DNA of 64,000 nucleotides from a virus. A program made the translations under genes and the position numbers. Below, piece by piece: positions 34,625 to 51,135 of the stretch. The stretch is taken from the IMG/VR virus record IMGVR_UViG_3300022413_000009, positions 4,827 to 68,826 of that record. One strand, 5' to 3'. Each line of letters opens with the position of its first letter. Position 1 is the stretch's first letter. The notes under the pieces were generated by a model. That model searched no databases and was not told the origin of the DNA. It saw only the letters and a list, made by a program, of their open reading frames with translations.

Positions 34625-35215
34625 TCAGCCACATTCAGCTACCACCAATATGTCTTGCACACCGGTGAACGTCACGTCAGCGTCGTCTACGGCATAGAAT
34701 TTCTTCTGTATGATTGTCACACCATCAGAATCGAACACCTGTCCTTCGACAGAGATATCCGTACGACAGTCAGTGCCTAATGGAATAGAACCTACGACTG
34801 GCAGGAAGAAATTTCCATTGGTTTTGGATACGCTGCGAACTTTCGTGTCAACTGTCTTCCAAGCGGTGATAGTCTTCTCCGCTGTGCTTGAGATACGTGA
34901 GGAGGTTCCACCGGCGGAGTACGCTGTAGAGGTGTAGGTGTACGTACCAGGCTTCACGTAGTCAATTTGATAGCTCGTCACCGTGCCGTCGGGTATGTCT
35001 GCCACGAGTTGCCAGATTCGTGTGCCACCTTGGTTCGTGTACGGACCGGCGTTCGTGCAGGTCTCCGTCTCCGTTGGGTTCGTCCAGTTCAACGCTATGC
35101 TGTCAGCGCGTACCTTCGACGATACGAAGCCTAGGATGACGACTATAGCCCAGAACGAGGCCCACTCGACTATCGTCATTGGACGGTTCTTCCTCATTAG
35201 AATCTCCACCCCCAT
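34625..35215 (-). CDS. Secreted/membrane-anchored beta-rich (Ig/FN3-like) protein
   Basis: 196 aa; N-terminal TM/signal segment and Thr/Ser/Gly/Tyr-rich beta-strand composition. Confidence 0.35.
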   Translation of the reverse strand: MGVEILMRKNRPMTIVEWASFWAIVVILGFVSSKVRADSIALNWTNPTETETCTNAGPYTNQGGTRIWQLVADIPDGTVTSYQIDYVKPGTYTYTSTAYSAGGTSSRISSTAEKTITAWKTVDTKVRSVSKTNGNFFLPVVGSIPLGTDCRTDISVEGQVFDSDGVTIIQKKFYAVDDADVTFTGVQDILVVAECG

Positions 35216-35685
35216 GTGATCAAGTCCTGCCCACGATTCGGCTTCGTGGTCCCCGCATTCGACCAGTGCCGAATGCCGATTGATTGATGGTCAGTGATGC
35301 GCCATTTGAGAACCAGAGTGTAACCGAGTTCGTCACCAATAAATCTTGAAGTGTGGATCCAGTACGCCGCGCCAATATGCACCTCAGTCGGGAGTGCCTT
35401 CCACCATGTCTCAGGTTTCTGTGCCACGAATGCGACAAAGACATTGCCGTTATTGTCGAGCTTCAGATCGTTGTAATCCTGCTCACTGATGAGAGCGATG
35501 CCAAGGTCAAACTTCTCCTGGTAGACTCTCTCAGTCAGTACGAGTCCCACGCCACCGTTGAATCCGCTGGCAAACGTCGGACCGATTTCAACTTCTGTCG
35601 CCTTCGCTTTATAGGCGAAGAACAGAAGCAGAACGATCAAGATTGCGATGACAGCGCCTTTCGGATTATCAAATAATTTGTTCAT
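35197..35685 (-). CDS. Outer-membrane beta-barrel protein (PagL/OmpA-like small barrel)
   Basis: 162 aa; signal peptide, alternating amphipathic strands, C-terminal ...ITWGWRF ending in Phe (OMP sorting signature). Confidence 0.45.
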   Translation of the reverse strand: MNKLFDNPKGAVIAILIVLLLFFAYKAKATEVEIGPTFASGFNGGVGLVLTERVYQEKFDLGIALISEQDYNDLKLDNNGNVFVAFVAQKPETWWKALPTEVHIGAAYWIHTSRFIGDELGYTLVLKWRITDHQSIGIRHWSNAGTTKPNRGQDLITWGWRF

Positions 35686-36665: not shown

Positions 36666-37175
36666 TCAATTCATGCGGATGATTTGTTTTTCGTTCGGCA
36701 TCTGGACGCTCGGGCCGCCAGAGAGTTCGGGATGGGCCCAGACTGCGGTTGGCCAGAAGGGTATCCCGCCGCGCGGCGTAAAACGTCCCTGTACCTCGAT
36801 TCGGTACGGCTCGATAGCGTCCACCAAATCGTTGATGATTTTGCAGACGCAACTCTCATGGAACTCACCGACATTTCTGTATGAACCGAGATAGAGTTTA
36901 AGGGATTTTGATTCAACGCACAATTCCCGTGGTGTGTACTGGATGATGATTTCTGCGAAATCAGGCTGTCCGGTTTTCGGACAGAGAGACGTGAACTCCG
37001 GCGCACGGATCACGATATTCCCTGCTGCCCCGTTGGGATTTCGCCCTTCTTCGCCTTCTTCTGTCGGCCAGAAAGGATTGGGGAAACTCTCTAGGAGCTC
37101 CGGATTCGCTGTGTCATATTCATACTTCGTGTCACTTGAGCCCAGCGATTTCAGTGACTTCGTTTGATCGTTCAT
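36666..37175 (-). CDS. queF: NADPH-dependent 7-cyano-7-deazaguanine reductase QueF (preQ0 to preQ1)
   Basis: 169 aa; FTSLCPKTGQPDF catalytic Cys region and ESKSLKLYL QueF signature. Confidence 0.7.
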   Translation of the reverse strand: MNDQTKSLKSLGSSDTKYEYDTANPELLESFPNPFWPTEEGEEGRNPNGAAGNIVIRAPEFTSLCPKTGQPDFAEIIIQYTPRELCVESKSLKLYLGSYRNVGEFHESCVCKIINDLVDAIEPYRIEVQGRFTPRGGIPFWPTAVWAHPELSGGPSVQMPNEKQIIRMN

Positions 37176-37866
37176 CTTCGAATCCTATTGCGTTGTCAAG
37201 CCACAGCGGCTCGGTGTGCGGGCCTGTCTCCAACCACCTAACGATGGCTGGGATACAGGTATCGAGTTTGAAATGGTCAGTCCAATCTTTTAATCGAATG
37301 AATCGACCAATCACTTCTTCTGTCCACTCCGGATCAGGCTCCTTCGTAAACCATTCACATCTCGCGCCGCGTTCTCCGTCAATTCGGCGCATTGCCCAGC
37401 CTCGCCCGAAAGGCCTGTGGGTAACTTGGTTGGCTCGTTCGGGTATCTCCGAATGAGTAAATCGTATCAATTCGAACTCGCAGCTCAGAGCGTTTCCGAC
37501 TGAGTCAGCGTTGTCGTGAATTCCGCAGCGTCCATCAACCAAATTCAAATGATGGCAGTAGTAGGTGTCGTTCCCGACTTGCATGTCACTCATCACAGGA
37601 AACTCTTCTCCGTCAAATTGGATCATCCTCTCTTCAACTCGATCCGCGACACCCGAGTGAAGCTTCTCTCCGGGCAGCCAATCCATCGTGAACTTACGGC
37701 AACAACCGCCGCAGTTCGGATGGCAAATCATCTGCCTTGTGAACATGCCAGGCGACACGCGCAATCGTTTCGGATGATATATCTTGTTCTTGTATCCGAA
37801 AGGCCGCAGCGTCACGGGCGCGAAATACGATGTGATGATCTTCTCAACTGAGTCCATTGAGTTCAT
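37132..37866 (-). CDS. Cys-rich hypothetical protein
   Basis: 244 aa; CHPNCGGCC and additional Cys/His clusters; unknown function, inside deazaguanine cluster. Confidence 0.3.
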   Translation of the reverse strand: MNSMDSVEKIITSYFAPVTLRPFGYKNKIYHPKRLRVSPGMFTRQMICHPNCGGCCRKFTMDWLPGEKLHSGVADRVEERMIQFDGEEFPVMSDMQVGNDTYYCHHLNLVDGRCGIHDNADSVGNALSCEFELIRFTHSEIPERANQVTHRPFGRGWAMRRIDGERGARCEWFTKEPDPEWTEEVIGRFIRLKDWTDHFKLDTCIPAIVRWLETGPHTEPLWLDNAIGFEDERSNEVTEIAGLK

Positions 37867-38462
37867 ATTCCAAATCCTAGGTCAAAGGCCTTCGCGAAAA
37901 ATGCGGACTTCGCGTCACGCGGCAATTGGGGAATGATTTCTATCCTCAATTCCTGCGCCTCTTGGCCGTGTTCATCCCACCCGACCCAATCTCGCGAGTC
38001 GGCATTGATAAGATTCTCTGCTTCAACGAAGAGAGCCAACCAGTCGGCTTTCTTGACGATGTCGCACTTTCCGATGAGCTGATACTTCTCTTCAATCCGT
38101 TTCTCAATCATCGCTTCGAGTTTATGGTAGCCCACCACTTGAGCTTTGAAGGGAGCAGCCATGTCACTCAAATAGGCTTCGCTGGCATCATGGAAGAGTG
38201 CCTGTCGTTGCTCTCCTTGGTTCCCGCCAAGCCATTCGACAATGCTAGTCACCAATACCGAGTGCTGCGCCACGGAGTAGAAATGAGTTACGTGGCCGGT
38301 GTACCGGCATTGATTGCTCAACGCATGACCGATATCTTCAATGCAAATTTCAGACGGATCATCGCCAAACAGATTGAACCTCTTGTCACTGTATGTCGTG
38401 ATCCACACGTGATCCTTGAATGCGTTTCTGCTACCCGGCATCGGGCTCCTCCTGATTGTCAT
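37863..38462 (-). CDS. HD-domain phosphohydrolase
   Basis: 199 aa; H...ALFHDASEAYLSDM HD motif (YfbR-like 5'-deoxynucleotidase type). Confidence 0.5.
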   Translation of the reverse strand: MTIRRSPMPGSRNAFKDHVWITTYSDKRFNLFGDDPSEICIEDIGHALSNQCRYTGHVTHFYSVAQHSVLVTSIVEWLGGNQGEQRQALFHDASEAYLSDMAAPFKAQVVGYHKLEAMIEKRIEEKYQLIGKCDIVKKADWLALFVEAENLINADSRDWVGWDEHGQEAQELRIEIIPQLPRDAKSAFFAKAFDLGFGI

Positions 38463-38964
38463 AACACGAGATGGCGAAGTGGTCGTTCTCTTTCTCCGTC
38501 ACCACATGGACATTCTGCCAGCGGTACATGAGTTTCCTCATCCACCAGGCTTGGGGCTTGAGTGTGATATGAGCGTTCCTTCCGTCTGGTAGCTTCGCAC
38601 AAGCCGGGCGAACTGAAATGACGAAGAAAGCCGCTAGGATCGTCTTTGATTTGATGTGGTCCAAAACAGCGTCGATGAACTCTTCCTCGACATGCTCCAT
38701 CACGTCAATGCAGAGGACTAAGTCGCAAGGGACCGGATCTTCTGAGAACTCTCCTTCAATCGCCGGATCATAATTTGTCACGCCCGGGAAATTCTGGCTC
38801 ACAGTCGCCTTGCCGCAGCCATAATCGAGGATAGAGCTTTGCTCTGGCCATGAATAGACGAAAGGGACGATCCATTCTTTCCAGCACCGCCAGGCGCTCG
38901 ATCCAAAGTGTTCGCTCTGCTTGTGAAGCTTCGAGTTCAATGCCTTGTATTCGTCAGATATCAT
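38431..38964 (-). CDS. Class I SAM-dependent methyltransferase
   Basis: 177 aa; motif I ILDYGCGKA, acidic motif II region LVLCIDVMEH. Confidence 0.5.
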   Translation of the reverse strand: MISDEYKALNSKLHKQSEHFGSSAWRCWKEWIVPFVYSWPEQSSILDYGCGKATVSQNFPGVTNYDPAIEGEFSEDPVPCDLVLCIDVMEHVEEEFIDAVLDHIKSKTILAAFFVISVRPACAKLPDGRNAHITLKPQAWWMRKLMYRWQNVHVVTEKENDHFAISCYDNQEEPDAG

Positions 38965-39337
38965 CTACGTCATATATCCTCTTCAAAAGTATCTCCGCGA
39001 TCTCGGGTGGGCTGAAATGGTCGCCTTTCAGCACCTTCCCATTCTCGTCCTTACCTTCTTTCGTCATGTTGCTTCGGTGGACTTCGGCAAAAACCTTGTC
39101 CAATGGAATCCCGTAATAATGAGCGGTGCCGCAGATGACATATACCATGTCAGCTAGGGCGTCCGTCACTTTCGTGAGATCCTTGCCTCGTTCAGCATAC
39201 CGATATTCATGATACTGATCCTCTAAGAGCTTCATTCGCCTCTTCACCTCCTCAGTGTCGGGTAGGTGTGGGACATCATTTATCGGTATGTCAAATTTCT
39301 CGTGAAACTCCTTAACGCACATCATCGCGCGATGCAT
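38954..39337 (-). CDS. MazG-like nucleotide pyrophosphohydrolase (all-alpha NTP-PPase)
   Basis: 127 aa; helical EExxE-type composition typical of MazG/HisE family; moderate. Confidence 0.35.
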   Translation of the reverse strand: MHRAMMCVKEFHEKFDIPINDVPHLPDTEEVKRRMKLLEDQYHEYRYAERGKDLTKVTDALADMVYVICGTAHYYGIPLDKVFAEVHRSNMTKEGKDENGKVLKGDHFSPPEIAEILLKRIYDVDDI

Positions 39338-39350
39338 TGGCCTTCTCCCA

Positions 39351-39908
39351 TTACCGTACTTGGTTCAAAAACTCCTCTTTGGCACTATTATCGCTCTTGA
39401 ATACGCCTCTTAGGGCTGTGGTGATGGTTTCGTGTCCCTGCTGACAGACTCCACGGCTTTCCATGCACAGGTGCCGACAGCATAGCCTGACCGCCACTCC
39501 TCTTGGCGACAGAACATCGTATATGGATTCTGCGATTTGATCGGTGAGTCGTTCTTGGACTTGGAGTCTGCGGGAAAAGCAATCCACGACTCGATTGAGT
39601 TTGGAAAGTCCGCAGATTTTCCCATCCGGGATATAGGCGACTGAGGCACGACCAAAAATAGCAGCAAGATGGTGCTCGCAATGGCTATATACCGGAATAT
39701 CACGGACCAACACCATTTGGTCGTAGTTTTCACCGCCATCTTCGAACTCCTTCATTATGTCCTTAGGATCTTCGCCGTAGCCCTTGGTCCAGAACTCCCA
39801 CGCGCGAGACACGCGCAAAGGGGTCTCAACCAATCCGCCTCGTTCCGGGTCCTCACCGATTCCTTTGAGCAGGTATCCGGCAGCGGCTTCTAGGTCACCA
39901 TTGCTCAT
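39351..39908 (-). CDS. folE: GTP cyclohydrolase I (FolE)
   Basis: Start trimmed to [33 protein letters not shown]; catalytic [13 protein letters not shown] motif. Confidence 0.7.
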
Positions 39909-40621
39909 GCTGCGGCCACCACGCTCTTCCAGAACTCTCTGTCTTCGTACTCGAGTGGATCTACCCACCCCATGTCGTTGAATGACTCCAGTCGTTCGAC
40001 ACAGGCGCCGCACTTGCCGCAGGCCTCTCTTCGACCGTTATAGCAGGTCCAGCTTTGACCATAATCCTCAGCGGTGAGACCAAGATCTTTGCCCACGTCA
40101 AGTATGTCGCCTTTGGTGAGTGTAATGAACGGTGTCAGCAATTTGACAGGTTGGTAGTTCGCAATCATCGTCGCTCCATTTAGAGCGTCGAAGAACTCTT
40201 CTCGGCAGTCGGGGTAGATATCGTGATCCCCTGCATGGGCGCCGCAGAACACGGCACCAATATCTAGGCTCACCGCGTATCCGACTGCTAGGCTGAGCAT
40301 TATCATATTTCGATTCGGGACGACTGTCGCCTTCATGTTTTCTTCAGAGTAGTGTCCCTCCGGGACCTCAATGCCGCTGGTCAATGAGCTGCCTTGGAGC
40401 AGAGTGTTGATTGATCGAATGTCAACCACCTTGTGCGGAATTCGTTTCACCGCGCAAAATCGGTGAGCGTACTCAAGCTCTTTGGCATGACGTTGCCCGT
40501 AATTGAACGACAAGGCATGCACCTCGTCACAGGTTTCGAGAGCGTGATTGAGAAGCGTGAACGAGTCCATGCCTCCCGAGTAGATGACTACCGACTTCAT
40601 AATGATACCTCCGCTGAACAT
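39905..40621 (-). CDS. queC: 7-cyano-7-deazaguanine synthase QueC
   Basis: 238 aa; PP-loop VIYSGGMDS and C-terminal zinc cluster [11 protein letters not shown]. Confidence 0.75.
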
Positions 40622-41052
40622 TTTCGTGTCTCTTCGACGATGACTTTCGTGAGCTTGACGCCGGGAGCATCAGCCAACAATTCCGGACCCATTATTTCGA
40701 GAAGATATCTGCCCATATTCTCGGCTGTCGGGTTAAATGGTGTGATGTGGAGACTGTCGTGCAGGTGTTGCCCTGGGTTGTCTCCGCTGATGAATCCTTG
40801 CTGAAGTAACTTGAGCATCGGATCGTCTTTCCAGATGAGGAACTTATGGTCCCATCTTCGCTCAAGCCATTCACAGAGCTTCGACTTGATGACTCCGAAG
40901 TCTATGACACGACCCACACCGTCGAGTTCCTCTGCTTCACAGAAGAACGTCACACGATAGTTATGTCCGTGGAGCCACCGGCACTTGTTCTCGTGTCCAA
41001 CGACGCGGTGTCCGGCGCTGAAATCGTGGTACCTAACTGCTCTGATTGACAT
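40597..41052 (-). CDS. queD: 6-carboxy-5,6,7,8-tetrahydropterin synthase QueD
   Basis: 151 aa; CRWLHGHNY (CxxxHGH) PTPS-family motif. Confidence 0.7.
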
Positions 41053-41470
41053 AGTTCCTCTCTAATGGGGCAATGGTGTGGATGGTTAGAGGATCTTCTT
41101 CTGCCTGGTGGGCTTCAACGAACTGGGCTGTCTCCATCCCAATAGCACGAACAACAACCTTCTTTTCTTTGACCGCCTGTATGGGACAAGGTACGACAAC
41201 CGCCTCACGGCCGTAGACCTTCCCGTCTTGGACCAGGACCAAGTCTTCACCGTCTTGATAGAAGAGGGCATAGTATCCGTCTGGATCATTTGCCAGGTTG
41301 CCATTGAACTGGACCGTGATGTCAATGCAGAAAGGATCGTCATCGAACTCACCAAGTGTGACGACGTTTGAATAGGCCGACCCCGGTTCGGCGAGTGCTG
41401 GGGGAAGTAGCGCCACGGCGGAGCCAAGGCCGACCATTTGCAAGAACTTTCTTCGATCCATCTTAGTCAT
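41033..41470 (-). CDS. Secreted protein with twin-arginine (Tat) signal peptide
   Basis: 145 aa; MTKMDRRKFLQMVGLGSAVALLPPALA. Confidence 0.5.
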   Translation of the reverse strand: MTKMDRRKFLQMVGLGSAVALLPPALAEPGSAYSNVVTLGEFDDDPFCIDITVQFNGNLANDPDGYYALFYQDGEDLVLVQDGKVYGREAVVVPCPIQAVKEKKVVVRAIGMETAQFVEAHQAEEDPLTIHTIAPLERNYVNQSS

Positions 41471-41831
41471 CGGAATGGAACTCTCCTATCAAACAATGTA
41501 GGAACTCGTGCCCAAGGGCATCCATGTCGGGGTCTCCGAGTATCTGTTCTGGCCGCCTAGCGTAGACAGCACAGAGCGAGGAGTTCGTCTCCTCATCATA
41601 ATAGAACGAGCTCCAGGCTTCACCGCCACGTTCACTGTCGAGCCAATTGATGTGAACGGTTGTCGAGTCAACCTCCCATTCCTGTTCGACTTCTTCACCA
41701 TAAGGATCGTAGCAGTAGAGCGGAGTCTCCTCAGCCTGTGCTTCAACCGGCTTGAAATTCAGCGTTACCCCTACTCCGAGAAAAAAGGTCACAATGACCA
41801 TCGATGCGACGACAATATGTATCTTCAACAT
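41463..41831 (-). CDS. Small secreted HExxH zinc-metallopeptidase-like protein
   Basis: 122 aa; signal/TM N-terminus and HEFLHCLIGEFH near C-terminus. Confidence 0.35.
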   Translation of the reverse strand: MLKIHIVVASMVIVTFFLGVGVTLNFKPVEAQAEETPLYCYDPYGEEVEQEWEVDSTTVHINWLDSERGGEAWSSFYYDEETNSSLCAVYARRPEQILGDPDMDALGHEFLHCLIGEFHSDD

Positions 41832-42553
41832 TATGGTAACCCCAGGTGCTTGTGAAGTTGATAGCTCATCCGATACCCGTACTGTTTCACAAGGCTGATG
41901 GCGTGTAGCTCGTTCTGCCGGTTCTCATCCTTGTCATACGAGTCTAGTGGCTGGACATACACCGCCTTACCGTTTGGAGGACGTGCCAGACGAATGTGCT
42001 TCTGCTTGGTTTGGGTACTGAGAATTGGCAAGCCATCCTCTTTGTCGGTATCGTCGAAGCTCACGATATACTTGTAACAGGACGACAGAGATTCAATTGT
42101 CTTATTGATTTTGGCCGTCTTCGGTGAGCAGACAATAGACAGATTGCCGTTCGCGAAAGCCAGCCTCGCCCAGTCATCGTTGAAGGCATCAATCCAGCGA
42201 ATGCCGTTCGTTTCAATCTGTACCCGATGCCCCTGCTCCAAGAGTTTGAAGCACAGGACCGAGATGTCTTGTCGAAAAGGCTCGCCGCCAGTGAGCACTA
42301 CCAAGTCAGTTTTGATGTGCTCATTGGCGGCGATAATCGCCAGAAGTAGTTCATCCATATGGGGGTGCCATGTGGACGATTCGAAGTCAGTGTCGCACCA
42401 GAAGCATTTGAGATTGCATCCGCCGAGGCGAACGAAGATAGCGCCTTCGCCAGCGAAAGGTCCCTCACCTTGTATGGTAGGGAAAACTTCTTGGATCCAG
42501 AGTTGATTTGGTGAGGATAGGTCCTGTTTTCTTATAGGGTTTTCGCCGAACAT
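41831..42553 (-). CDS. queE: 7-carboxy-7-deazaguanine synthase QueE (radical SAM)
   Basis: 240 aa; TIQGEGPFAGEGAIFVRLGGCNLKCFWCDT cluster-binding motif. Confidence 0.75.
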   Translation of the reverse strand: MFGENPIRKQDLSSPNQLWIQEVFPTIQGEGPFAGEGAIFVRLGGCNLKCFWCDTDFESSTWHPHMDELLLAIIAANEHIKTDLVVLTGGEPFRQDISVLCFKLLEQGHRVQIETNGIRWIDAFNDDWARLAFANGNLSIVCSPKTAKINKTIESLSSCYKYIVSFDDTDKEDGLPILSTQTKQKHIRLARPPNGKAVYVQPLDSYDKDENRQNELHAISLVKQYGYRMSYQLHKHLGLP

Positions 42554-42585: not shown

Positions 42586-42999
42586 TTACTGGGTATCCAC
42601 TTCCGACGCAAGTTCTGAGTCACCCGGATTCTCAAGTCGTTGATACACCTCTTTAATGGACTCTTGCAATGACTCTTTCATGTACGAGAAGCGGTCAGGA
42701 ATCGCAAGAACCTTGACAGGTTTGTCTGTCATGTCGAGCGGGAATCGCATTTCAAGGGTCTGGAAATGGATATCTTCCATGCAGACGATTTCATCTGCCC
42801 AGTGGATTAGGATGGCATCCACCGGGATTAGCGCATAATCATTCGCGCCAGCGGCCCTGGTATTGAAGCCAAATTCTCGTTGAAGGACAACCGCAGCGGT
42901 CGGAGAACGCAAAAGACCCGCAGAGCAGACGCAAAGAACTCTCTTCGCGTCGCCCTGGTACGGGTTCTTGCAGGTGAACAATCGATTCATATCGTTCAT
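42586..42999 (-). CDS. Low-molecular-weight protein-tyrosine phosphatase / ArsC-like protein
   Basis: 137 aa; P-loop CSAGLLRSP (CX5R-S) near N-terminus and downstream DP loop. Confidence 0.45.
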   Translation of the reverse strand: MNDMNRLFTCKNPYQGDAKRVLCVCSAGLLRSPTAAVVLQREFGFNTRAAGANDYALIPVDAILIHWADEIVCMEDIHFQTLEMRFPLDMTDKPVKVLAIPDRFSYMKESLQESIKEVYQRLENPGDSELASEVDTQ

Positions 43000-43224
43000 T
43001 TAAGGATCCAAAAGTTTCTTCGCCTCCTTGAGGGTTCTCCGTGCCTTGTTCACGTCTTTTGCTACAGAGAGAGGATCAATCTTCTCCCCTTTGGTCTCCT
43101 TCCGGAAGCCTGCAATCATGGCACCAAAGTCACCACCAGCTTGGCGGATACGTTTCGTCCCGAACAACATGATCACGATTACTGCGATAATCAGAAGTTG
43201 GGGCATGCTTATTCCTGACAACAT
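43000..43224 (-). CDS. tatA: Twin-arginine translocase subunit TatA/TatE homologue
   Basis: 74 aa; [42 protein letters not shown] aligns closely with bacterial TatA ([40 protein letters not shown]): TM helix, hinge G, amphipathic helix. Confidence 0.75.
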   Translation of the reverse strand: [74 protein letters not shown]

Positions 43225-43331
43225 TTCATTTCTCCTTTCTATGAGATAAGGAGCGGGCCCTGAGTTTCCGGTTTGAATGACATTGACCTAGTCATCGCAT
43301 CCCCTTCAATCTACTGGCGGGCCCGCCGTTT

Positions 43332-43361
43332 GAAAAACCCGCCCCGGGTTGGCAGGGCGGG
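43332..43361 (-). terminator. Rho-independent terminator between 43434..44183 gene and tatA
   Basis: Minus-sense CCCGCCCTGCCAACCCGGGGCGGG hairpin followed by TTTTTC. Confidence 0.45.
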
Positions 43362-44255: not shown

Positions 44256-44765
44256 TTAAGCCTCGACTGTATTCATTTCCGTAGCGACAAAGTTCACGTC
44301 TGCCGTGATAAGTTCATGCGGTGACGCCTGTATCGACACGCTATTGATATAGGCATTGAACCGATGCTTCCACGGACCCTGGTGAACTTCAATCCAATGA
44401 GGTCCATGCGTCTCCGTGAGCAGACGTACCTTTTCAATATCTTCGACATACATCGTAAACCGGCCAGAAATCTCACGTCGTCCAAATCCAAATCCAACGG
44501 GGCTTAAAACACCAACCTGTCGATGAGGATAGATATTCTCGTCCAATGAGAATTCGGATTCAATGACCATAGGTGTGAAGACTTCACCTTCAACCATCTC
44601 CTTGACTGGTTCAGAAACTTCAACGCCCGCCTGTTCAAGTGCCGCGATTGGTGATCCTTCAATCACCTCGTGTACCGCTTCGTCACCTGTCACCAGGTGT
44701 CGGCCAACCGTGGTTACGGCTACGCCACCGATCGTCATACCTTTTATGAAATCTCGTCTATCCAT
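44256..44765 (-). CDS. Secreted protein with twin-arginine (Tat) signal peptide
   Basis: 169 aa; MDRRDFIKGMTIGGVAVTTVG. Confidence 0.5.
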   Translation of the reverse strand: MDRRDFIKGMTIGGVAVTTVGRHLVTGDEAVHEVIEGSPIAALEQAGVEVSEPVKEMVEGEVFTPMVIESEFSLDENIYPHRQVGVLSPVGFGFGRREISGRFTMYVEDIEKVRLLTETHGPHWIEVHQGPWKHRFNAYINSVSIQASPHELITADVNFVATEMNTVEA

Positions 44766-45475: not shown

Positions 45476-45823
45476 CTACCGCCGCTTCTGCAAACGGTTA
45501 TAGAGCAGGATTATTCTCATCCCTATAGAAAATCTAGGTTCGTACCTGACCCCGCTACGCAGACGATTGAGATATGACTGTGAACATCCCACGATTTGCG
45601 CAACTCTCGAGCTCGAAATCTTGTGCTTCAATTGCAGGGTCCTGAGGATCTTCTGAAAATCAACCTCAGCCGGGTGTGTAGTCTCCGAAATTGAGCGTTG
45701 GGAGGTTTTTGCTCTGTTGATATTCGCGCCCGGGGATGTCAGACCAGACAAGTGACTCTGGTACTTCATAGAGTTGGTCGCAATTTCTGCAGACATCGAT
45801 GTCATCGAATCTTCCTTCCTCAT
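45476..45823 (-). CDS. Helix-turn-helix DNA-binding protein
   Basis: 115 aa; SSRVAQIVGCSQSYLNRLRSG HTH; overlaps 3' end of radical SAM gene by about 158 nt in another frame. Confidence 0.4.
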   Translation of the reverse strand: MRKEDSMTSMSAEIATNSMKYQSHLSGLTSPGANINRAKTSQRSISETTHPAEVDFQKILRTLQLKHKISSSRVAQIVGCSQSYLNRLRSGVRYEPRFSIGMRIILLYNRLQKRR

Positions 45824-46646
45824 GCGCTAACCTGAGTTCACGATACGCAGGGGAGTCGACAATTTCTGCGATGGAATTTGAATCGAGATGTCCAAGCACT
45901 CCTCGGGAATCTTGCCCAAGCACCATACAGCACGCGACAACCGCCGCACGGTGGCTGCCAAGGCCTCCAGCCCGCACTTGCAAAAGGGGAGCGTTGGGTC
46001 GGCCACAAGATCTTTTTTCACCGCGCCGATGATAGTTGATGTCGATCTTATCTGAATCTGCCCAATTGTGCATGAGCCAAATTTCACTGTGAGCTCCAGT
46101 GAATCGGCCCCAGTTCTTTCTATACTGTAATACTTCATATTCGACCTCTTCCTGATTTATGATTAGGTGATTGATGTGCATCTCACTCAGCGATCCTTTC
46201 GCCATGCTGACGAAACGCCGAGCGTTCTCTCTCACCAAATCATAATCCCCGCCTTCCATCCACTTCGTGTACGTCGGTTTGTCATAACCGATGCAAGACA
46301 GGCGTAGGATGTCAATGCCTGCCTCTATCAATTCTCCGCTCAGTTTCTCCGTCAGCTTCTTACCGTTGGTAAACGATATGCAGGTGAGGCCGCGATCCTT
46401 GACTGCCTTGACGAACTTCGGAAAGTCTCGGTTGAGCGTCGGCTCGCCGCTGCCATGGAGTGTAACCGTCTGGAGGCCATACTGCATCCCATCGTCGACA
46501 ATCTTTTCGAATACATCAAAAGGGAGCTTTCTGAGAAACTCTCTCTCGCGTCCTTGTGACTGGGGACACATCTGGCACTTATAGTTACAGCCACCATTCA
46601 ACTCTAAGTCAAGGACATGTATCTGCAGGTCTTCAGGAGTCGGCAC
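45666..46646 (-). CDS. Radical SAM superfamily enzyme
   Basis: 326 aa; CNYKCQMC (Cx3Cx2C) near N-terminus, GSGEPTLN SAM-binding region. Confidence 0.6.
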   Translation of the reverse strand: MPTPEDLQIHVLDLELNGGCNYKCQMCPQSQGREREFLRKLPFDVFEKIVDDGMQYGLQTVTLHGSGEPTLNRDFPKFVKAVKDRGLTCISFTNGKKLTEKLSGELIEAGIDILRLSCIGYDKPTYTKWMEGGDYDLVRENARRFVSMAKGSLSEMHINHLIINQEEVEYEVLQYRKNWGRFTGAHSEIWLMHNWADSDKIDINYHRRGEKRSCGRPNAPLLQVRAGGLGSHRAAVVACCMVLGQDSRGVLGHLDSNSIAEIVDSPAYRELRLAHEEGRFDDIDVCRNCDQLYEVPESLVWSDIPGREYQQSKNLPTLNFGDYTPG

Positions 46647-47028
46647 TCTTTTTTCTCACCTTCTTTGGAATCACTCCACCGACTGTACTTCGATCGATGT
46701 CATCATGTTGGAAGTTCGCGAAGTATATCTCGAACACGACTGCCATCTCCTGTCCAACTGCGACAAATTGATGGTCATGCCCGGGCTTGACTTCATGGTA
46801 GTCACCGACCTCAAGGATTGTTTCATCCCAAAGCTCGTTCCCGTTCCCATAATCCATTCTTTCTCGGATCATGATGCGACCCTTCTCGCAATAGAATCCG
46901 TTCCACTTGTATTTATGAGAGTGAACGGAGCATTGTGTCCCGGGATGAACTTCGATGCGATGTAGCTCTAGGGATGAATTAGCGACTATCTGTACCGTCT
47001 CTCCCCAGATTTTTCCGGCTTTTTTCAT
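46633..47028 (-). CDS. Cupin-domain protein
   Basis: 131 aa; HRIEVHPGTQCSVHSH ... GFYCEKGRIMI two-His cupin motifs. Confidence 0.45.
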   Translation of the reverse strand: MKKAGKIWGETVQIVANSSLELHRIEVHPGTQCSVHSHKYKWNGFYCEKGRIMIRERMDYGNGNELWDETILEVGDYHEVKPGHDHQFVAVGQEMAVVFEIYFANFQHDDIDRSTVGGVIPKKVRKKSADS

Positions 47029-47614: not shown

Positions 47615-48154
47615 TTATTCATTCCAAAGCCTTAGGCTTGGAGCCTTACTCAAGTCAATGAATCTGAATTCGTGTACGGTTACGCCCCATCCATCAGCCT
47701 CTTTTGTGATCGTCTCAGAAATTTCATCGGCGAAACCATTCGCATGAATGTGCTTCCAGGTGCTGTCCGCGACCGTGTCACCGATGATTCCACAAGAGGC
47801 CTGATGCAGGACATCATCGACTTCTTCGACTTTGAGGACTGTCTTTTCGATATCGTTGATGCTCCACAGAACCATTCCTTGAATGACGATTTCAACGCCG
47901 TCCTCTGTTGTGAGGCTCTGCTCACCGAGGTCCATCGCTGCGGGAACGACATTATCGACGAAGATTTGATCGACGTCAAAAGGGATGACCCAATGGAAGC
48001 CAGGTTGGAGGACAGGGTTTCGTTTCCAGAAGAGAAACCGGTAGCGCCTCTTGCCGAGCGTGAGCACGACTCCTCTCTCGTACTCGTCAATGACAACCCA
48101 GAATTGGAAGATTTGTACGAAGTCGACGAGGAGGTCTATGAGGCGATCAAACAT
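47615..48154 (-). CDS. SPFH / band-7 (stomatin-prohibitin-HflC-like) domain protein
   Basis: 179 aa; IDEYERGVVLTLGK... typical start of SPFH domain. Confidence 0.5.
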   Translation of the reverse strand: MFDRLIDLLVDFVQIFQFWVVIDEYERGVVLTLGKRRYRFLFWKRNPVLQPGFHWVIPFDVDQIFVDNVVPAAMDLGEQSLTTEDGVEIVIQGMVLWSINDIEKTVLKVEEVDDVLHQASCGIIGDTVADSTWKHIHANGFADEISETITKEADGWGVTVHEFRFIDLSKAPSLRLWNE

Positions 48155-49887: not shown

Positions 49888-49962
49888 TGGTGGATGCGGT
49901 AGGTCTCGAACCTACGTCTTTCCCGTTAAGAGCGGTGACTCTGCCAGCTGAGTTACGCATCC
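49888..49962 (-). tRNA. tRNA-Lys (anticodon CUU), tentative
   Basis: T-arm GTAGG-TCTCGAA-CCTAC, acceptor GGATGCG, loop CUCUUAA. Confidence 0.45.
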
Positions 49963-49967
49963 GAAAT

Positions 49968-50042
49968 TGGAGCCCCATCTAGGATTCGAACCCAGAAGCT
50001 AATCAGTTTCGAAGACTGACACCCGTCCACCGGGCATGAGGC
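49968..50042 (-). tRNA. tRNA-Arg (anticodon UCG)
   Basis: T-arm CTAGG-ATTCGAA-CCCAG, anticodon stem TCAGT/ACTGA with loop CUUCGAA. Confidence 0.5.
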
Positions 50043-50043
50043 T

Positions 50044-50120
50044 TGGTTGATGCCGTGGGAGTTGAACCCACCTCATAGCAGGATATAAGCCTGCGTGTGA
50101 CGACCGGCCACCCGGCATCT
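50044..50120 (-). tRNA. tRNA with anticodon UAU (Ile, AUA-reading)
   Basis: T-arm GTGGG-AGTTGAA-CCCAC, perfect anticodon stem GCAGG/CCTGC with loop CUUAUAU. Confidence 0.5.
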
Positions 50121-50126
50121 ATTGTT

Positions 50127-50201
50127 TGGTCCTTCCCCGTGGTATCGAACCACGCTCCACGGTGCTTCAAACCGTTGCTAATCCATCTCAGCTAGAGAAG
50201 G
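50127..50201 (-). tRNA. tRNA-Phe (anticodon GAA)
   Basis: T-arm CGTGG-TATCGAA-CCACG, anticodon stem ACGGT/ACCGT, loop UUGAAGC. Confidence 0.5.
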
Positions 50202-50202
50202 T

Positions 50203-50280
50203 TGGTGCGCCCCCTCGGCTTCGAACCGAGAAACTACTCGTTTTGAGCGAGCAAGGTATGCCTATTCCCATCAGGGACGC
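50203..50280 (-). tRNA. tRNA with anticodon CAA (Leu codon UUG) but short variable loop
   Basis: T-arm CTCGG-CTTCGAA-CCGAG, loop CUCAAAA, acceptor GCGTCCC/GGGGCGC; 5-nt variable region unlike type II Leu tRNAs. Confidence 0.45.
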
Positions 50281-50288
50281 TTAGAATT

Positions 50289-50361
50289 TGGACCCCCCAC
50301 GAGGACTCGAACCTCGAAATCAGAGCTTAGAACACTCCTACCGCTCCTGTCGGATGGAGGG
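50289..50361 (-). tRNA. tRNA-like gene, anticodon loop possibly UUCUAAG (anticodon CUA, amber-suppressor type); unresolved
   Basis: Acceptor CCCTCCA/TGGGGGG fully paired with CCA, T-arm CGAGG-TTCGAGT-CCTCG; anticodon stem only 3-4 bp in my fold. Confidence 0.35.
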
Positions 50362-50415
50362 ACGATGTGCTTTCAAAAGCACGGTAACCAGGTTAAGGTG
50401 CTTTCAAAAGCAAAT

Positions 50416-50493
50416 TGGAGCCACAGCTCGGAAGCGCGCCGAGTTCCCCTGTTTACAAGACAGGACATCATCTAGATAAATGTTTCGTGTGGC
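50416..50493 (-). tRNA. tRNA-Thr (anticodon UGU), atypical T-loop
   Basis: Anticodon stem CCTGT/ACAGG loop CUUGUAA; T-stem CTCGG/CCGAG with unusual loop. Confidence 0.4.
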
Positions 50494-50499
50494 ATTGTT

Positions 50500-50574
50500 T
50501 GGTCGTCCGAGAAGGAATTGCACCTTCATCTCCTCGCGTATCAGACGGGGGCTCTACTGTTAAGCTACCGGACT
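50500..50574 (-). tRNA. tRNA-like gene, anticodon unresolved
   Basis: TGG + T-arm GAAGG-AATTGCA-CCTTC and D-arm-like GCTTAACAGTAGAGC; anticodon stem not confidently placed. Confidence 0.3.
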
Positions 50575-50575
50575 C

Positions 50576-50647
50576 TGGTAGCGGCACCGGGTAACGCTCC
50601 CGGCTGTCCTGGGTTATGAGCCCTGGTTGGTCGCTTGACCTACCGCA
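50576..50647 (-). tRNA. tRNA-Met/Ile2-type (anticodon CAU)
   Basis: T-stem CCGGG/CCCGG, anticodon loop CUCAUAA. Confidence 0.45.
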
Positions 50648-50653
50648 TTAAAT

Positions 50654-50730
50654 TGGTACCCCAGGCGGGACTCGAACCCGCAAACTACAGTTTCTAAGAC
50701 TGGCGGCTATGCCTATTCGCCTACCGGGGC
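50654..50730 (-). tRNA. tRNA with anticodon UAG (Leu codon CUA) but short variable loop
   Basis: Clean cloverleaf: acceptor GCCCCGG, D-stem GGCG/CGCC, loop CUUAGAA, T-arm GCGGG-TTCGAGT-CCCGC, CCA encoded. Confidence 0.5.
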
Positions 50731-50732
50731 AT

Positions 50733-50807
50733 TGGAGATGTGAGACGGATTCGAACCGTCGTGTGTCTGGTTTGCAAGCAGAAGCCTATCCTCTCGGCCA
50801 TCACATC
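50733..50807 (-). tRNA. tRNA-Cys (anticodon GCA)
   Basis: Acceptor GATGTGA/TCACATC, T-arm GACGG-TTCGAAT-CCGTC, loop UUGCAAA. Confidence 0.55.
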
Positions 50808-50812
50808 TATGT

Positions 50813-50888
50813 TGGGGTGTCTCCTAGGACTTGCACCTAGTTCATCCGGGATCACAACCCAGGCTTCACGTTTCAAAGTTTGAGACAC
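50813..50888 (-). tRNA. tRNA-His (anticodon GUG)
   Basis: Acceptor GTGTCTC/GAGACAC, anticodon stem CTGGG/CCCGG loop UUGUGAU, T-arm CTAGG/CCTAG. Confidence 0.5.
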
Positions 50889-50894
50889 ATTGTT

Positions 50895-50972
50895 TGGAGC
50901 ATCCGACGGGACTCGAACCCGCATTGTTCTGGGTGAAAACCAGACTGCCTATTCCATTTAGCTGACAGATGC
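50895..50972 (-). tRNA. tRNA-Glu (anticodon UUC)
   Basis: T-arm ACGGG-TTCGAGT-CCCGT, anticodon stem TCTGG/CCAGA loop UUUUCAC. Confidence 0.55.
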
Positions 50973-50973
50973 T

Positions 50974-51052
50974 TGGTACTCCTGAACGGACTCGAACCGT
51001 CATTGTTCTGGATGAGAACCAGACCGCCTATTCCAATTAGCAGGACAGGAGC
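50974..51052 (-). tRNA. tRNA-Glu (anticodon CUC)
   Basis: Near-duplicate of previous tRNA with loop UUCUCAU. Confidence 0.5.
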
Positions 51053-51061
51053 GTCGTTGTT

Positions 51062-51134
51062 TGGTGGAGGTGCGCGGAATCGAACCCCGCCCATCGGCTT
51101 GCAAGGCCGTCGGTGGCGCCCACGCACCACCCCC
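51062..51134 (-). tRNA. tRNA-Ala (anticodon UGC)
   Basis: Acceptor GGGGGTG/CACCTCC, anticodon stem CGGC/GCCG loop CUUGCAA. Confidence 0.5.
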
Positions 51135-51135
51135 T

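Follow-up and report, generated by a model that had tools for sequence, protein, structure and literature searches.

A tailed-phage TatA-type protein and its association with phage proteins bearing twin-arginine signals

We identified in a tailed phage a gene encoding a TatA/E-type protein (hereafter tatA), together with four genes whose products start with a twin-arginine (RR) motif. Proteins of the latter type are encoded near tatA in other phages that have a closely related TatA, and three of the four resemble domains of virion proteins of the kinds that the phage itself has. From these sequence comparisons we consider it fairly probable that the phage TatA joins the TatBC complex of the host to export phage-encoded cargo. 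The window, i.e., the 64,000-nucleotide stretch of viral DNA analysed here, is part of a genome of 87 kb. A contig of 87,151 bp, identical to the window at all six of the 50-base probes falling within the contig, encodes a terminase, a portal, head, tail tube and tail tip proteins, a DNA polymerase, and 17 tRNAs. The features discussed below are listed in Table 1.

Table 1. Coordinates of the features discussed in the text (positions in the window).
Feature	Coordinates	Strand	Remarks
tatA	43000..43224	-	TatA/E-type subunit, 74 aa, phage clade
Shine-Dalgarno AAGGAG	43237..43232	-	7 nt ahead of the start codon (ATG at 43224); read from the sequence
Terminator-like hairpin	43328..43361	-	9-bp stem, 8 G-C pairs, then TTTTT; terminator scan and sequence
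w137	42586..42999	-	CX5R(S) motif VLCVCSAGLLRSP, as in low-molecular-weight phosphatases
w274	17747..18571	-	Tat-signal protein, MVDLSRRSFLKLTGSAAVLASVPSAVG; motif SRRSFLK
w198	17154..17750	-	N-terminus SRRDAIKFFLAGTASGAYMGWSA, RR region LMSRRDAIKFFLAGTASGAYMGWSA; motif SRRDAIK
w145	41033..41470	-	Tat-signal protein, MTKMDRRKFLQMVGLGSAVALLPPALA, cleavage site, then EP; motif DRRKFLQ
w169	44256..44765	-	Tat-signal protein, MDRRDFIKGMTIGGVAVTTVG; motif DRRDFIK
655-aa virion-module protein, 5' part	1..679	-	Runs off the window start
Lysis cassette	63066..64000	-	Pfam; full gene order read on L030
GH108/PG_binding_3 endolysin	63550 to past window end	-	Pfam; full length 185 aa
Two small membrane proteins after the endolysin	63268..63540 and 63066..63278	-	Gene order
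i-/o-spanin-like pair	59940..60594		End of tail operon

The phage TatA and its clade

The first-pass annotation had proposed that the 74-aa ORF encodes a homologue of TatA/TatE, and sequence searches confirm that its product is of the TatA/E type. It matched the Tat-family profile of Pfam (PF02416, TatA_B_E) with E=1.1e-10 and 41.1 bits (gathering score 21), and scored 52.7 bits with the NCBIfam model TIGR01411 (tatAE), missing the cutoff of 53.9 by 1.2 bits. The best NCBIfam matches were all TatA/TatE models. The equivalog models of particular bacterial TatA/TatE groups were not reached, as expected of a divergent clade. When the PDB was searched with phmmer, the protein matched E. coli TatA (2mn6/2mn7/2lzs, E about 4e-11), to which it aligns without gaps over residues 3-45 with 25 of 43 positions identical (58%). 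That annotation gave no strand for the ORF. The gene is on the minus strand; on the plus strand there is no ORF at this place and the translation is meaningless. Public gene calls start tatA at Met7, giving a product of 68 aa; the start of the 74-aa protein is supported by the Shine-Dalgarno sequence.

TatA proteins have an N-terminus of 8-10 residues ending in an essential polar residue, then a hydrophobic helix of 12 residues with a conserved Phe at its end, followed by the hinge Gly (PMC9527704). The F-K motif of the amphipathic helix is also important (PMC13186574). In the phage protein, the N-terminus has eight residues (MLSGISMP) and is followed by Gln9, which aligns with Gln8 of E. coli and is invariant in the clade alignments. 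The hydrophobic helix (L10-F21) has 12 residues, ends in Phe, and precedes the hinge Gly22, and the amphipathic helix ends in G39-F40-R41-K42 (G-F-K-K in E. coli, G-F-[KR]-[KR] in most clade members). The features that reviews name as essential in TatA are thus present in the window protein, and also in nearly all the clade members examined. TatB, the other candidate, has a Gly-Pro hinge, a Glu before the helix, and around 170 aa in E. coli. We rejected it given the F-G-T-K hinge, the Gln, and the 74 aa of the phage protein.

The window TatA belongs to a phage-specific clade of around 20-28 sequences from phages of 33-61% GC: around 20 sequences score at least 96 bits, ahead of bacterial TatAs, and the clade of the neighbour-joining tree includes 28 of 147 sequences. 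All over the clade there is a deletion of seven residues after the amphipathic helix and a loss of most of the acidic patch, and the tail is conserved and mostly basic (AKDV-K-A-[KR]-K-T...K-A-K-K). Both the indel and the tail are absent from bacterial TatAs. In the window protein, the acidic cluster after the amphipathic helix is not kept (net charge -1, with three acidic residues mixed with two Lys), and the phage-specific, basic tail has a net charge of +3 as a whole. In E. coli TatA the removal of the negative charges after the amphipathic helix reduces activity without abolishing it (PMC9527704), so that the acidic patch is a modulating rather than a strictly defining feature. This part of the protein is the basis of an alternative that we regard as very improbable, namely that the phage TatA is a dominant-negative inhibitor whose altered tail poisons host Tat translocons and blocks the export of host envelope proteins, e.g., receptors or defence factors. 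The region is consistently unlike that of bacterial TatAs, its acidic patch being reduced and a basic helix added, and changes in its acidic residues do lower activity in E. coli. Yet, such an inhibitor would also act against the four RR-signal proteins of the phage itself, whose genes co-occur and co-vary with tatA. Furthermore, since the region past the amphipathic helix is dispensable in E. coli (PMC9527704), a changed tail need not inactivate the protein.

The earlier view that such a function is seldom annotated in phages agrees with our searches. With tblastn, 50,697 phage records gave only bacterial contigs of Salmonella and Acinetobacter filed as phage, and noise at E around 9. Pattern scans for the phage-type TatA found none in IMG/VR and none in 185,579 species-representative genomes, and a scan of JGI metagenomes retrieved two loci only. 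Comparison of the region with phage genomes by megablast gave no match. The literature searched for phage-encoded TatA or Tat-dependent phage proteins contained none (it was mostly TATA-box noise and phage-display papers), and a search joining twin-arginine with superinfection exclusion returned nothing relevant. The window TatA does match phrog_29532 over 56 residues (E=8.8e-7), a family with no assigned function and no literature, which indicates that TatA-like proteins are already present, unnamed, in viral protein catalogues. One of the relatives, P0003, was annotated as TatA by the JGI pipeline.

tatA is surrounded by a 7-deazaguanine DNA-modification cluster and by middle-type genes of metabolic or auxiliary type. 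It is separated from a DUF932 gene by the terminator-like hairpin, and hence probably starts its own transcription unit. The ATG of w137 abuts the stop codon of tatA (TAAATG), and the w137 product had no match in Pfam, NCBIfam or PHROG. We rejected w137 as a partner of TatA, as no homologue was found at any other TatA locus; not being kept beside tatA in other lineages, it is probably outside the system. The DUF932 protein was rejected as well, since a TatA-less relative also has a DUF932 gene.

We also considered an artefact, i.e., a bacterial tatA mis-assembled into a viral contig, with RR N-termini due to chance or to mis-called starts. The data are metagenomic, and the TatA matches in the public phage collection were bacterial contigs under phage names. 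However, assemblies from ENA, JGI, and Logan, which are independent of one another, show the same gene order around tatA. In GC content, tatA follows each phage, from 0.33 to 0.58, and both flanks are phage genes sharing its strand. Bacterial TatAs lack the indel and tail of the clade, of which the species-representative genomes hold no copy, and the RR motifs are far above chance and kept in orthologues (see below). Such an artefact is therefore extremely improbable.

Twin-arginine signals and their co-occurrence with tatA

Four ORFs of the window had been described as starting with canonical Tat signals. All four are real and are encoded on the minus strand, but the description suits only w274, w145, and w169. 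The RR motif of w198 is non-canonical, with Ala in place of Phe, and the protein matched none of the Tat-signal models (Pfam and TIGR01409). Using the curated model TIGR01409 (cutoff of 16.7 bits), w169 and w274 scored above the cutoff (18.6 and 17.1 bits) and w145 just below it (16.2 bits). Three of the four N-termini thus reach the threshold or fall short of it by no more than 0.5 bit. The first-pass annotation had named two results that would refute it, the lack of any Tat-family profile match for the 74-aa ORF and a non-Tat classification of the N-termini; we looked for both and obtained neither. The signal of w274 was also matched by the Pfam TAT_signal profile (E=5e-4). Among proteins of the relatives, P0037 (18.3), P0041 (17.5) and L023_244 (21.4) exceeded the cutoff, P0040 (16.3) and L014_174 (16.0) were just below, and four others had no match. 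The proteins missing the cutoff by less than 1 bit were thus three, relatives included.

The RR consensus across the set is S/D/N-RR-x-F-[LI]-[KQ]. The h-regions that follow are weakly hydrophobic, with mean Kyte-Doolittle values of 0.8-1.7, whereas those of the Sec-type and lipoprotein signals of the same phage range between 1.85 and 2.46. Putative cleavage sites of the AxA type were found in w145 (ALA, before E), in P0037 (AGA, before I), and in P0041 (AAA, before T). There is no clear cleavage site in w169 and w198, which may stay anchored in the membrane; in the case of w198 the N-terminus is possibly an uncleaved signal-anchor. The start of w198 overlaps the end of w274 by four bases (17747..17750). 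w198 also contains a string resembling motif B of DNA polymerases (RAEAKRRTFAYLYGG), only partly conserved in its orthologue.

To estimate how many RR motifs arise by chance, we shuffled the N-termini of 95 minus-strand proteins. The expected number was 0.10 with a loose filter and 0.002 with the strict consensus, and four were observed. No RR motif was found at the real gene starts of phage lambda, and 751 kb of TatA-less viral loci contained no canonical one. The motif is kept in orthologues at 33-66% identity. As judged from their sequences, the Tat-type signals of the phage ORFs thus appear to be genuine.

RR-signal proteins are encoded near tatA, often in adjacent genes, in five of the eight independent lineages with a TatA of the clade. 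The sister phage (L007/L017) has orthologues of w169 (adjoining tatA), w274, and w198, and the RR is kept in all of them, the w198 orthologue having NRRDALKYF. The w274 orthologue P0037 keeps both SRRSFLK and the AGA cleavage motif. Two RR proteins start around 0.2 and 1.3 kb downstream of tatA in L014/L019, two others (one w274-like and one w169-like) are encoded 3-4 kb from tatA in L023, and one is encoded just upstream of tatA in L025. The remaining three lineages (L021, L002/L001/L003, and L031) encode no RR protein within the 7-17 kb of sequence present; either their cargo is encoded elsewhere in the genome, or a phage profits from TatA even if it has no cargo of its own. In IMGVR_UViG_3300033144_003327, a syntenic relative with 45-78% protein identity, tatA is missing together with w169, w145, w274, and w198, and the flanking genes are conserved at each site of the missing genes. 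Joint absence in one relative could reflect the general turnover of accessory genes, but it is hard to explain in this way why four sites would all hit RR genes. Altogether, these observations strengthen the earlier suggestion that the phage TatA is linked to a set of phage Tat substrates. Pattern scans of IMG/VR with w274 and with TerL as single proteins, which require shared exact 8-mers, retrieved nothing. A scan with the single sequence of a 403-aa neighbour gave only an unrelated phage, and a profile of three sequences worked.

The lineages devoid of visible RR genes are relevant for another explanation, akin to that of auxiliary metabolic genes. The phage TatA might maintain the host's own Tat export, e.g., of respiratory enzymes, cell-wall amidases or phosphatases, when host expression is shut off, with the RR proteins as incidental users. 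TatA is the Tat subunit needed in the largest copy number, and would therefore be the most sensitive to dilution or turnover. The position of tatA among genes of metabolic or auxiliary type also fits. We nevertheless find host maintenance unlikely, since it leaves unexplained the RR proteins directly beside tatA in four lineages, the lack of all four RR genes in the TatA-less relative, and the distinctive conserved tail of the clade.

Virion-type domains of the cargo and a model for export

The RR proteins are not a single conserved family, a possibility that we rejected because their mature domains are unrelated except between orthologues. w169 consists of the signal, a linker, and a domain of around 105 aa with the fold of phage tail tubes. 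The core of its AF2 model has a pLDDT of 70-83, and its Foldseek matches are tail tube proteins. All four members of the w169 family have the RR and the h-region; a distant homologue that lacks the signal, P0043, matched PF18906 (Phage_tube_2, E=3e-21). The domains of w274 and w145 have their parent type in a 655-aa protein, whose gene comes next downstream after that of the major head protein (in the gene map of L027). Residues 63-138 of w274 are a copy of its N-terminal domain (BLASTP, 41% identity, E=3e-18), and the mature part of w145 is a copy of its C-terminal domain (BLASTP, E=4e-7; E=9e-9 between w145 and P0038). Using tblastn, P0038 and w274 matched positions 185..679 of the window and L027:12507-14474. 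Apart from the TAT_signal of w274, no PHROG or Pfam domain was matched by w274, w145, w198, P0038, or the 655-aa protein, and the AlphaFold model of w274, built from three sequences, was unusable (pLDDT of 33). The cargo proteins (145-274 aa) have no recognisable catalytic domain. We conclude that w169, w145, and w274 each duplicate a domain found in a kind of virion protein that the phage itself encodes.

No TatB or TatC is encoded in the window, where proteins have at most two hydrophobic segments and where a search of the ORFs with a TatA profile returned only tatA. Hence, the phage TatA can only act with the TatBC receptor complex of the host. During infection it would add to, or replace, the host TatA at substrate-loaded TatBC, raising or retuning the capacity of the Tat pathway. 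The products of w274, w198, w145, and w169 would then be transported already folded to the periplasm or to the outer face of the inner membrane. Virion-type domains fold in the cytoplasm, where they probably also form oligomers, and this would account for the use of Tat rather than Sec. The mostly basic C-terminal helix, specific to the phage proteins, may adapt TatA to its cargo or to regulation. We infer the cooperation with host TatBC, the export itself, and any benefit to the phage, and the same applies to the boosting or retuning of export that was proposed initially. The receptor usually seen as limiting in E. coli is TatBC and not TatA, so that a higher flux is not a self-evident result of additional TatA by itself. 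A further point against the model is that the clade lacks most of the acidic patch that E. coli TatA needs for full activity (PMC9527704).

TatA might also act alone. The annotation had mentioned its repurposing as a holin-like permeabiliser. Without TatBC, it would thin or depolarise the inner membrane, affecting the timing of lysis or the release of a signal-less hydrolase. TatA does weaken membranes by means of its short helix and amphipathic helix, as do the holins of the TpeE/BhlA type (PMC9527704). In the low-GC lineage (L001-L004), tatA is directly followed by a gene for a signal-less cell-wall hydrolase of the SleB type (PF07486), and tatA might have a holin role there. In the window phage, however, a lysis cassette of the canonical kind, with the genes for the GH108 endolysin, two small membrane proteins, and an i-/o-spanin-like pair, is present at the end of the tail operon, around 17-20 kb from tatA, which lies among middle-type genes. 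All the Tat-specific residues are retained in its TatA, and the clade conserves those for which a holin would have no use (the Gln before the helix, the F-G hinge, and G-F-K/R-K); a holin also gives no reason for the co-variation of the RR-signal genes. Lysis is thus disfavoured as the function of TatA in this phage, and we regard it as quite improbable.

Assuming export with host TatBC, the role of the cargo is a matter of speculation: it might be superinfection exclusion, or the masking of receptors or of the envelope by decoys made of virion domains. Structural genes would have been duplicated and a signal peptide added, yielding folded, perhaps oligomeric cargo with the domains of tail-tube and head-proximal proteins. 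In a more specific version, to which we give little credence for now, the conserved basic C-terminal helix would turn the phage TatA into a cargo-dedicated adaptor, comparable to TatAd for PhoD, that hijacks host TatBC and exports virion-domain decoys or caps, which in the periplasm block DNA delivery by related superinfecting phages or mask receptors. If the decoys were real, the phage TatA would be the first subunit of a general protein translocase to be encoded by a virus, and superinfection exclusion would gain a new class that depends on Tat. Provided that host TatBC and the phage TatA do work together, viruses can reprogramme the capacity for protein export, and not only metabolism. The phage TatA would also provide a natural compact variant, basic in its tail and lacking the acidic patch, to probe how translocon assembly is controlled by the number of TatA and by its C-terminal region. 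Its cargo would be a new class of envelope-directed phage proteins, in which a Tat signal is fused to copies of virion domains, and whose role might be exclusion, receptor masking, or a remodelling of the envelope. A tatA gene on a viral contig should then also not be discarded as contamination during automatic annotation.

Comparison with known systems

The phage TatA resembles E. coli TatE and TatA (58% core identity to the latter) in size (67-89 aa) and in architecture, i.e., a short N-out N-terminus, a polar residue, a 12-residue helix, the Gly hinge, and F-K. In E. coli, tatE is a monocistronic paralogue of tatA whose product works with TatBC; it stands alone, without tatB or tatC, like the phage tatA. 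The phage protein differs in being encoded by a virus, in forming a separate clade with a deletion of seven residues, and in having a conserved, mostly basic helix as its tail, whereas the E. coli tail is acidic and unstructured. Unlike its E. coli counterparts, the phage gene is associated in the genome with its own cargo.

Association with a cargo is known in Bacillus subtilis, where TatAd-TatCd is a translocase dedicated to PhoD and encoded beside this substrate. In both cases the gene of a TatA paralogue adjoins those of particular substrates, with which it is presumably expressed, and TatA would be specialised for a small set of cargo; similarity between the phage TatA and the structure of TatAd (2l16) is weak (E=0.004). 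The B. subtilis system supplies its own TatC, whereas the phage supplies only TatA and must use the TatBC of its host. The cargo also differs, since PhoD is a phosphodiesterase and the phage cargo consists of copies of virion domains.

Holins of the TpeE/BhlA type share with the phage TatA a short transmembrane helix with an amphipathic one after it, the association with phages or prophages, and the weakening of membranes. They are unrelated to TatA in sequence and lack its conserved positions (PMC9527704). In contrast, the window protein is truly homologous to TatA, has each of these positions, and is encoded far from the lysis cassette. A virion-type fold joined to a twin-arginine signal that directs its transport through the inner membrane has a precedent in WceF of Pantoea stewartii, a bacterial protein with the fold of phage tailspikes (PMC7949094). 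WceF is a chromosomally encoded, glycan-modifying enzyme of 736 aa, whereas the phage proteins have 145-274 aa and are copies of tail-tube or head-proximal domains.

Phages are known to encode holins and spanins and, in the case of filamentous phages, secretins. A phage encoding a subunit for the export of folded proteins, together with matched substrates, is undescribed in the phage records and the literature that we searched. Several phages direct proteins to the envelope for superinfection exclusion or receptor masking, e.g., Imm and Sp of T4, Llp of T5, and SieB of lambda. These proteins use Sec, are lipoproteins, or insert directly into the membrane, and we know of none that uses Tat or comes with a translocase subunit. 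Their destination, the infected cell's envelope, would also be that of the RR proteins described here, which makes exclusion or masking a candidate role for the cargo.

The tatA gene and its genomic setting

The first-pass annotation had taken the 74-aa ORF at 43000..43224 for a TatA/TatE homologue. It lies on the minus strand, the plus strand having no ORF there, and profile searches confirmed the assignment. The ORF matched Pfam TatA_B_E (PF02416) with E=1.1e-10 and 41.1 bits (gathering score 21), as well as several TatA/TatE models of NCBIfam, among which TIGR01411 (tatAE subfamily) gave 52.7 bits for a cutoff of 53.9. A phmmer search of all PDB sequences retrieved the NMR structures of Escherichia coli TatA (2mn6, 2mn7, 2lzs and 2lzr, E ~4e-11 to 7e-10). 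The alignment with E. coli TatA covers residues 3-45 without gaps, with 25 of the 43 positions identical. The start at ATG 43224 is supported by an AAGGAG Shine-Dalgarno sequence 7 nt upstream. Public gene callers place it at Met7, giving a protein of 68 aa (P0001), and the longer N-terminus (MLSGIS...) can be aligned to MGGIS, a conserved sequence in bacterial TatA. Between tatA and the upstream DUF932 gene is a strong hairpin resembling a terminator (stem of 9 bp with 8 G-C pairs, then TTTTT). No other window ORF matched the TatA profile and no window protein had more than two hydrophobic segments. Hence, the phage encodes neither TatC nor a second TatA/B.

Features of the window discussed in the text (proteins named w are numbered by their length in aa)
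Feature	Position	Strand	Remark
655-aa virion-module protein, 5' end of gene	679..1	-	
66-aa gene	16957..17157		
w198	17154..17750	-	RR protein
w274	17747..18571	-	RR protein
403-aa protein	18555..19766	-	upstream of w274
PagL-type protein and two small membrane proteins	34503..35685	-	PagL domain 35197..35685
7-deazaguanine (queuosine-precursor) DNA-modification set	36666..42553	-	also includes PRA-PH-like pyrophosphohydrolase and methyltransferase
QueF-like	36666..37175	-	
FolE	39351..40013	-	
QueC	39905..40621	-	
QueD/PTPS	40597..41052	-	
w145	41033..41470	-	RR protein
w122	41463..41831	-	overlaps start of w145
QueE-like radical SAM	41831..42553	-	
w137	42586..42999	-	
tatA	43000..43224	-	
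w169	44256..44765	-	RR protein
Radical SAM/SPASM enzyme and cupin	45666..47028	-	326 and 131 aa
SPFH/Band 7 protein	47615..48154	-	E=1.3e-18
17-tRNA-gene array	49888..51636	-	1.75-kb stretch without ORFs
Probable spanin pair	59940..60594	-	~3 kb from endolysin-holin block, not adjacent
94-aa spanin-pair lipoprotein	59940..60224	-	lipobox LGSC
157-aa spanin-pair protein	60121..60594	-	N-terminal membrane helix; overlaps 94-aa lipoprotein

Essentially all window genes lie on the minus strand, and PHROG matches include portal, large terminase, major head protein, DNA polymerase, processivity factor, primase, helicases and exonuclease. An 87,151-bp ENA contig was identical to the window at all six 50-base probes falling within it; the rest of this contig encodes a tail module (tail terminator, 419-aa Phage_tube_2 tube protein, 2012-aa tail tip protein) and then the lysis cassette. 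The neighbours of tatA form a phage 7-deazaguanine DNA-modification cluster (FolE, QueD, QueC, QueE and a QueF-like gene), with no DpdA/TGT identified among the scanned ORFs. This gene order recurs in independent ENA, JGI and Logan assemblies. The tRNA array encodes Lys, Cys, Phe, Ala, Val, Pro, Gly, Asn and Tyr tRNAs once, and Arg, Ile, Leu and Glu tRNAs twice.

Several other genes deserve mention. The ATG of w137 directly follows the tatA stop (TAAATG); this protein has a CX5R(S) phosphatase-like motif (VLCVCSAGLLRSP), no profile match, and no homologue in the other TatA-bearing phages. w122, without family match, has an N-terminal hydrophobic signal or anchor and a C-terminal HEFLH (HExxH-like) motif, and could be a small exported metallopeptidase. 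The radical SAM/SPASM-cupin pair, which may modify a peptide or nucleotide, is kept in a sister phage and in a TatA-less relative (UViG_3300033144_003327). The SPFH/Band 7 membrane-scaffold protein possibly stabilises the membrane; Band_7 genes also occur in this relative (L015:1550-2086) and 4 kb from tatA in an unrelated TatA phage (L021:13945-14820). The PagL-type protein has a Sec signal and a lipid A 3-O-deacylase domain (E=2.7e-6), and gives a second hint, independent of Tat, of host envelope remodelling by the phage; in the relative its slot is occupied by another gene. The 403-aa protein matches phrog_8203 (unknown function) and is widespread: IMG/VR contains homologues at 45 loci (29-49% identity), in which the N-terminal motif MIVFEN...GFFGTGLKYA is invariant. 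Its function is unrelated to the presence of TatA.

Twin-arginine proteins and the origin of their mature domains

We scanned every possible start in six frames (1,838 starts) for twin-arginine (RR) signals, i.e., RR-x-hydrophobic-hydrophobic followed by an uncharged h-region. The scan returned the four ORFs previously described as carrying canonical Tat signals and one lipoprotein-type signal (59940..60224, MRRSLLLIPLTLVLGSC), with no others. The description holds for w274 (SRRSFLK), w145 (DRRKFLQ, with an ALA|EP site) and w169 (DRRDFIK), but not for w198, which has SRRDAIK followed by a Gly-rich h-region. The curated model TIGR01409 (cutoff 16.7 bits) scored w169 (18.6), w274 (17.1) and w145 (16.2) and gave no score for w198. 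The mean Kyte-Doolittle hydropathy of the h-regions was 0.8-1.7 in the RR proteins, against 1.85-2.46 in the signals of Sec and lipoprotein type that the phage also encodes, which is the expected difference between Tat and Sec signals. When the first 45 residues of 95 minus-strand proteins were each shuffled 2,000 times, the loose filter had an expectation of 0.10 hits and the strict consensus one of 0.002, for four observed. Phage lambda had no hit at any real gene start. The 45 TatA-less IMG/VR loci (751 kb, ~1,400 ORFs) had no consensus hit and five loose ones, all off-frame-looking. A dominant-negative role of the phage TatA would be at odds with the phage's own RR proteins, and we regard it as very improbable.

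The mature parts of three of the four candidate cargo proteins resemble virion proteins. The sole distant, signal-less homologue of w169 is P0043, which belongs to the Phage_tube_2 tail tube proteins (PF18906, E=3e-21), as does the phage's own tube protein. The AlphaFold model of w169 (mean pLDDT 62 overall, 70-83 in the core) is a beta-sandwich plus helix, and matches tail tube proteins of BFVD (E ~7e-6, target TM up to 0.59) and tube-type structures of the PDB (phage 812, R4C, lambda gpV, GTA tube, monocin and Hcp). Residues 63-138 of w274 align at 41% identity (E=3e-18) with residues 43-124 of a 655-aa protein of this phage, whose gene lies four genes beyond that for the major head protein. 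The same protein is matched by w145 at residues 445-474 and 609-654, including the C-terminal ...LERNY (E=4e-7), and w274 and w145 are connected by P0038, a homologue of 437 aa from a different phage. Hence, each of these three joins a Tat signal to copied virion-protein sequence of domain size. We found no family annotation for the 655-aa parent and no detectable relative of w198 except its orthologue. Virion domains that fold fast in the cytoplasm would be natural clients of Tat, not Sec. A virion-type fold combined with a Tat signal has been documented before, in Pantoea WceF (PMC7949094).

Co-occurrence of tatA and twin-arginine genes

We analysed the genomic context of eight TatA lineages with the same RR filter. 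Besides the window lineage, with its four RR proteins, the sister phage from the same sample (L007, L017; ~65% identity) encodes a w169 orthologue (MDRRGFVKG) directly upstream of tatA, and orthologues of w274 (P0037, MANLSRRSFLKLSGGAAVLATIPKAVAGA) and w198 (NRRDALKYF). In L014/L019 (TatA 50% identical, 60% GC, SU10-type portal), tatA is followed by a 72-aa gene and two RR proteins, MDRRTFLKF... (205 aa) and MSNNRRTFLGRLTALLGASAVVPAWA (174 aa). L023 encodes, 3-4 kb downstream of tatA, the distantly w169-like MNRRGLLKSF... (181 aa) and the w274-like MNRRGFLKGV... (244 aa, TIGR01409 21.4 bits), and L025 encodes MAEKIDRRAFLSGAG... (141 aa) just upstream of tatA. RR proteins of different families have unrelated mature parts and resemble each other in the signal regions alone. 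Within families the RR motif is kept and the h-region drifts, a pattern expected for functional signal peptides.

No RR protein was found in L021, the low-GC L001-L006 group, or L031, within 7-17 kb of DNA per locus. A generic host-maintenance role of the phage TatA would account for these three lineages without visible cargo, but it explains neither the adjacency of tatA and RR genes nor their co-variation, and we find it unlikely. It had also been suggested that TatA might have been repurposed as a holin-like protein. We keep this idea at low probability because tatA of the low-GC lineage is next to the gene for a SleB-type hydrolase without a signal; it is weak for the phage studied here, whose lysis cassette is canonical (185-aa GH108 endolysin, two small membrane proteins, i-/o-spanin-like pair) and distant from tatA. 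The other flank of the low-GC tatA (L001/L002) is a tRNA-like sequence. In the same phage, genes for sulfotransferase, Capsule_synth and methyltransferase proteins are clustered (10371..16124; PF00685, PF03567, PF05159, PF05050) in a glycan-sulfation-like module that is unusual for a phage.

The TatA-less relative (66 kb in IMG/VR; L015, L032) is a natural knockout. It is syntenic with the window from helicase through DNA polymerase to the packaging side (45-78% protein identity), lacks tatA, and conserves the flanking genes at each RR-gene site, where the RR gene is missing. The rSAM-SPASM gene is directly followed by DUF932 (no w169), two unrelated small genes separate DUF932 from QueE (no tatA or w137), and between QueE and QueD there is a 99-aa gene (no w122 or w145). 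At the remaining site, 118 bp separate the 403-aa gene from a homologue of the 66-aa gene downstream of it (no w274 or w198). This co-variation of five genes at separate sites is our strongest single argument that tatA and the RR genes form one functional set.

A phage clade of TatA and its proposed function

In a large protein database, the close relatives of the phage TatA (61-75% identity) were on phage-like contigs, followed by bacterial TatAs of Alcanivorax, Microbulbifer, Haliea and Cellvibrio (~50%). The profile search ranked ~20 sequences (at least 96 bits) above the bacterial TatAs. All TatAs of known phage context fell in one clade of 28 of the 147 sequences in a neighbour-joining tree without support values. 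The clade phages span 34% to 61% GC and the GC content of tatA follows each genome, so that this is an old, ameliorated phage gene family, not a recent capture or chimera.

TatA had been described as not commonly annotated in phages. Indeed, we found no phage-clade TatA in 50,697 phage records, where the real matches were Salmonella or Acinetobacter bacterial contigs filed as phage, nor, with pattern scans, in IMG/VR or in 185,579 species-representative genomes. One PHROG of unknown function (phrog_29532) matches the phage TatA. Five tatE/tatA-bearing records of the phage collection (OR851447.1, AFYI01000004.1, AGRM01000003.1, CAKLQH020000005.1 and CAKLQF020000005.1) were rejected as phage genomes, being chromosomal contigs of these genera or short unannotated fragments. 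Such misfiled records would yield false "phage TatA" hits in automated surveys.

Clade identity, co-location across lineages, and co-absence in the TatA-less relative make it the best-supported reading of these sequences that the phage TatA associates with TatBC of the host and assists the export of phage RR proteins. This reading is also in line with the general behaviour of TatA, which oligomerises, is present in many copies and is recruited to TatBC once this is loaded with substrate, with clusters of at least 16 protomers (PMC13186574). More speculatively, the exported cargo might act as virion-domain decoys for superinfection exclusion or for receptor or envelope masking, which would fit its origin.

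Neither the protein family nor the type of RR signal is new. What is new to the collections and literature searched is their combination, in which a TatA clade borne by viruses, with a tail of its own, co-varies with virus-encoded Tat cargo built from copies of virion domains. The clade has the TatA core, whose functional significance has been described (PMC9527704, PMC13186574): an N-terminus of 8-9 residues, a polar Gln, a 12-residue hydrophobic helix ending in Phe, and G-F-[KR]-[KR]. The hinge Gly is kept by all aligned and examined members, and the rest of the core by nearly all. Two features set the clade apart from bacterial TatAs: a deletion immediately past the amphipathic helix, at the place of the bacterial acidic patch, and a second motif that is conserved and helix-like (A-K-D-[VI]-x-K-A-[RK]-K-T...K-A-K-K). 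This motif gives most phage tails a net charge of +3 to +7, whereas bacterial tails have -3 to -5. This changed tail need not inactivate the phage TatA, since E. coli TatA can do without its C-terminal region past the amphipathic helix (PMC9527704).
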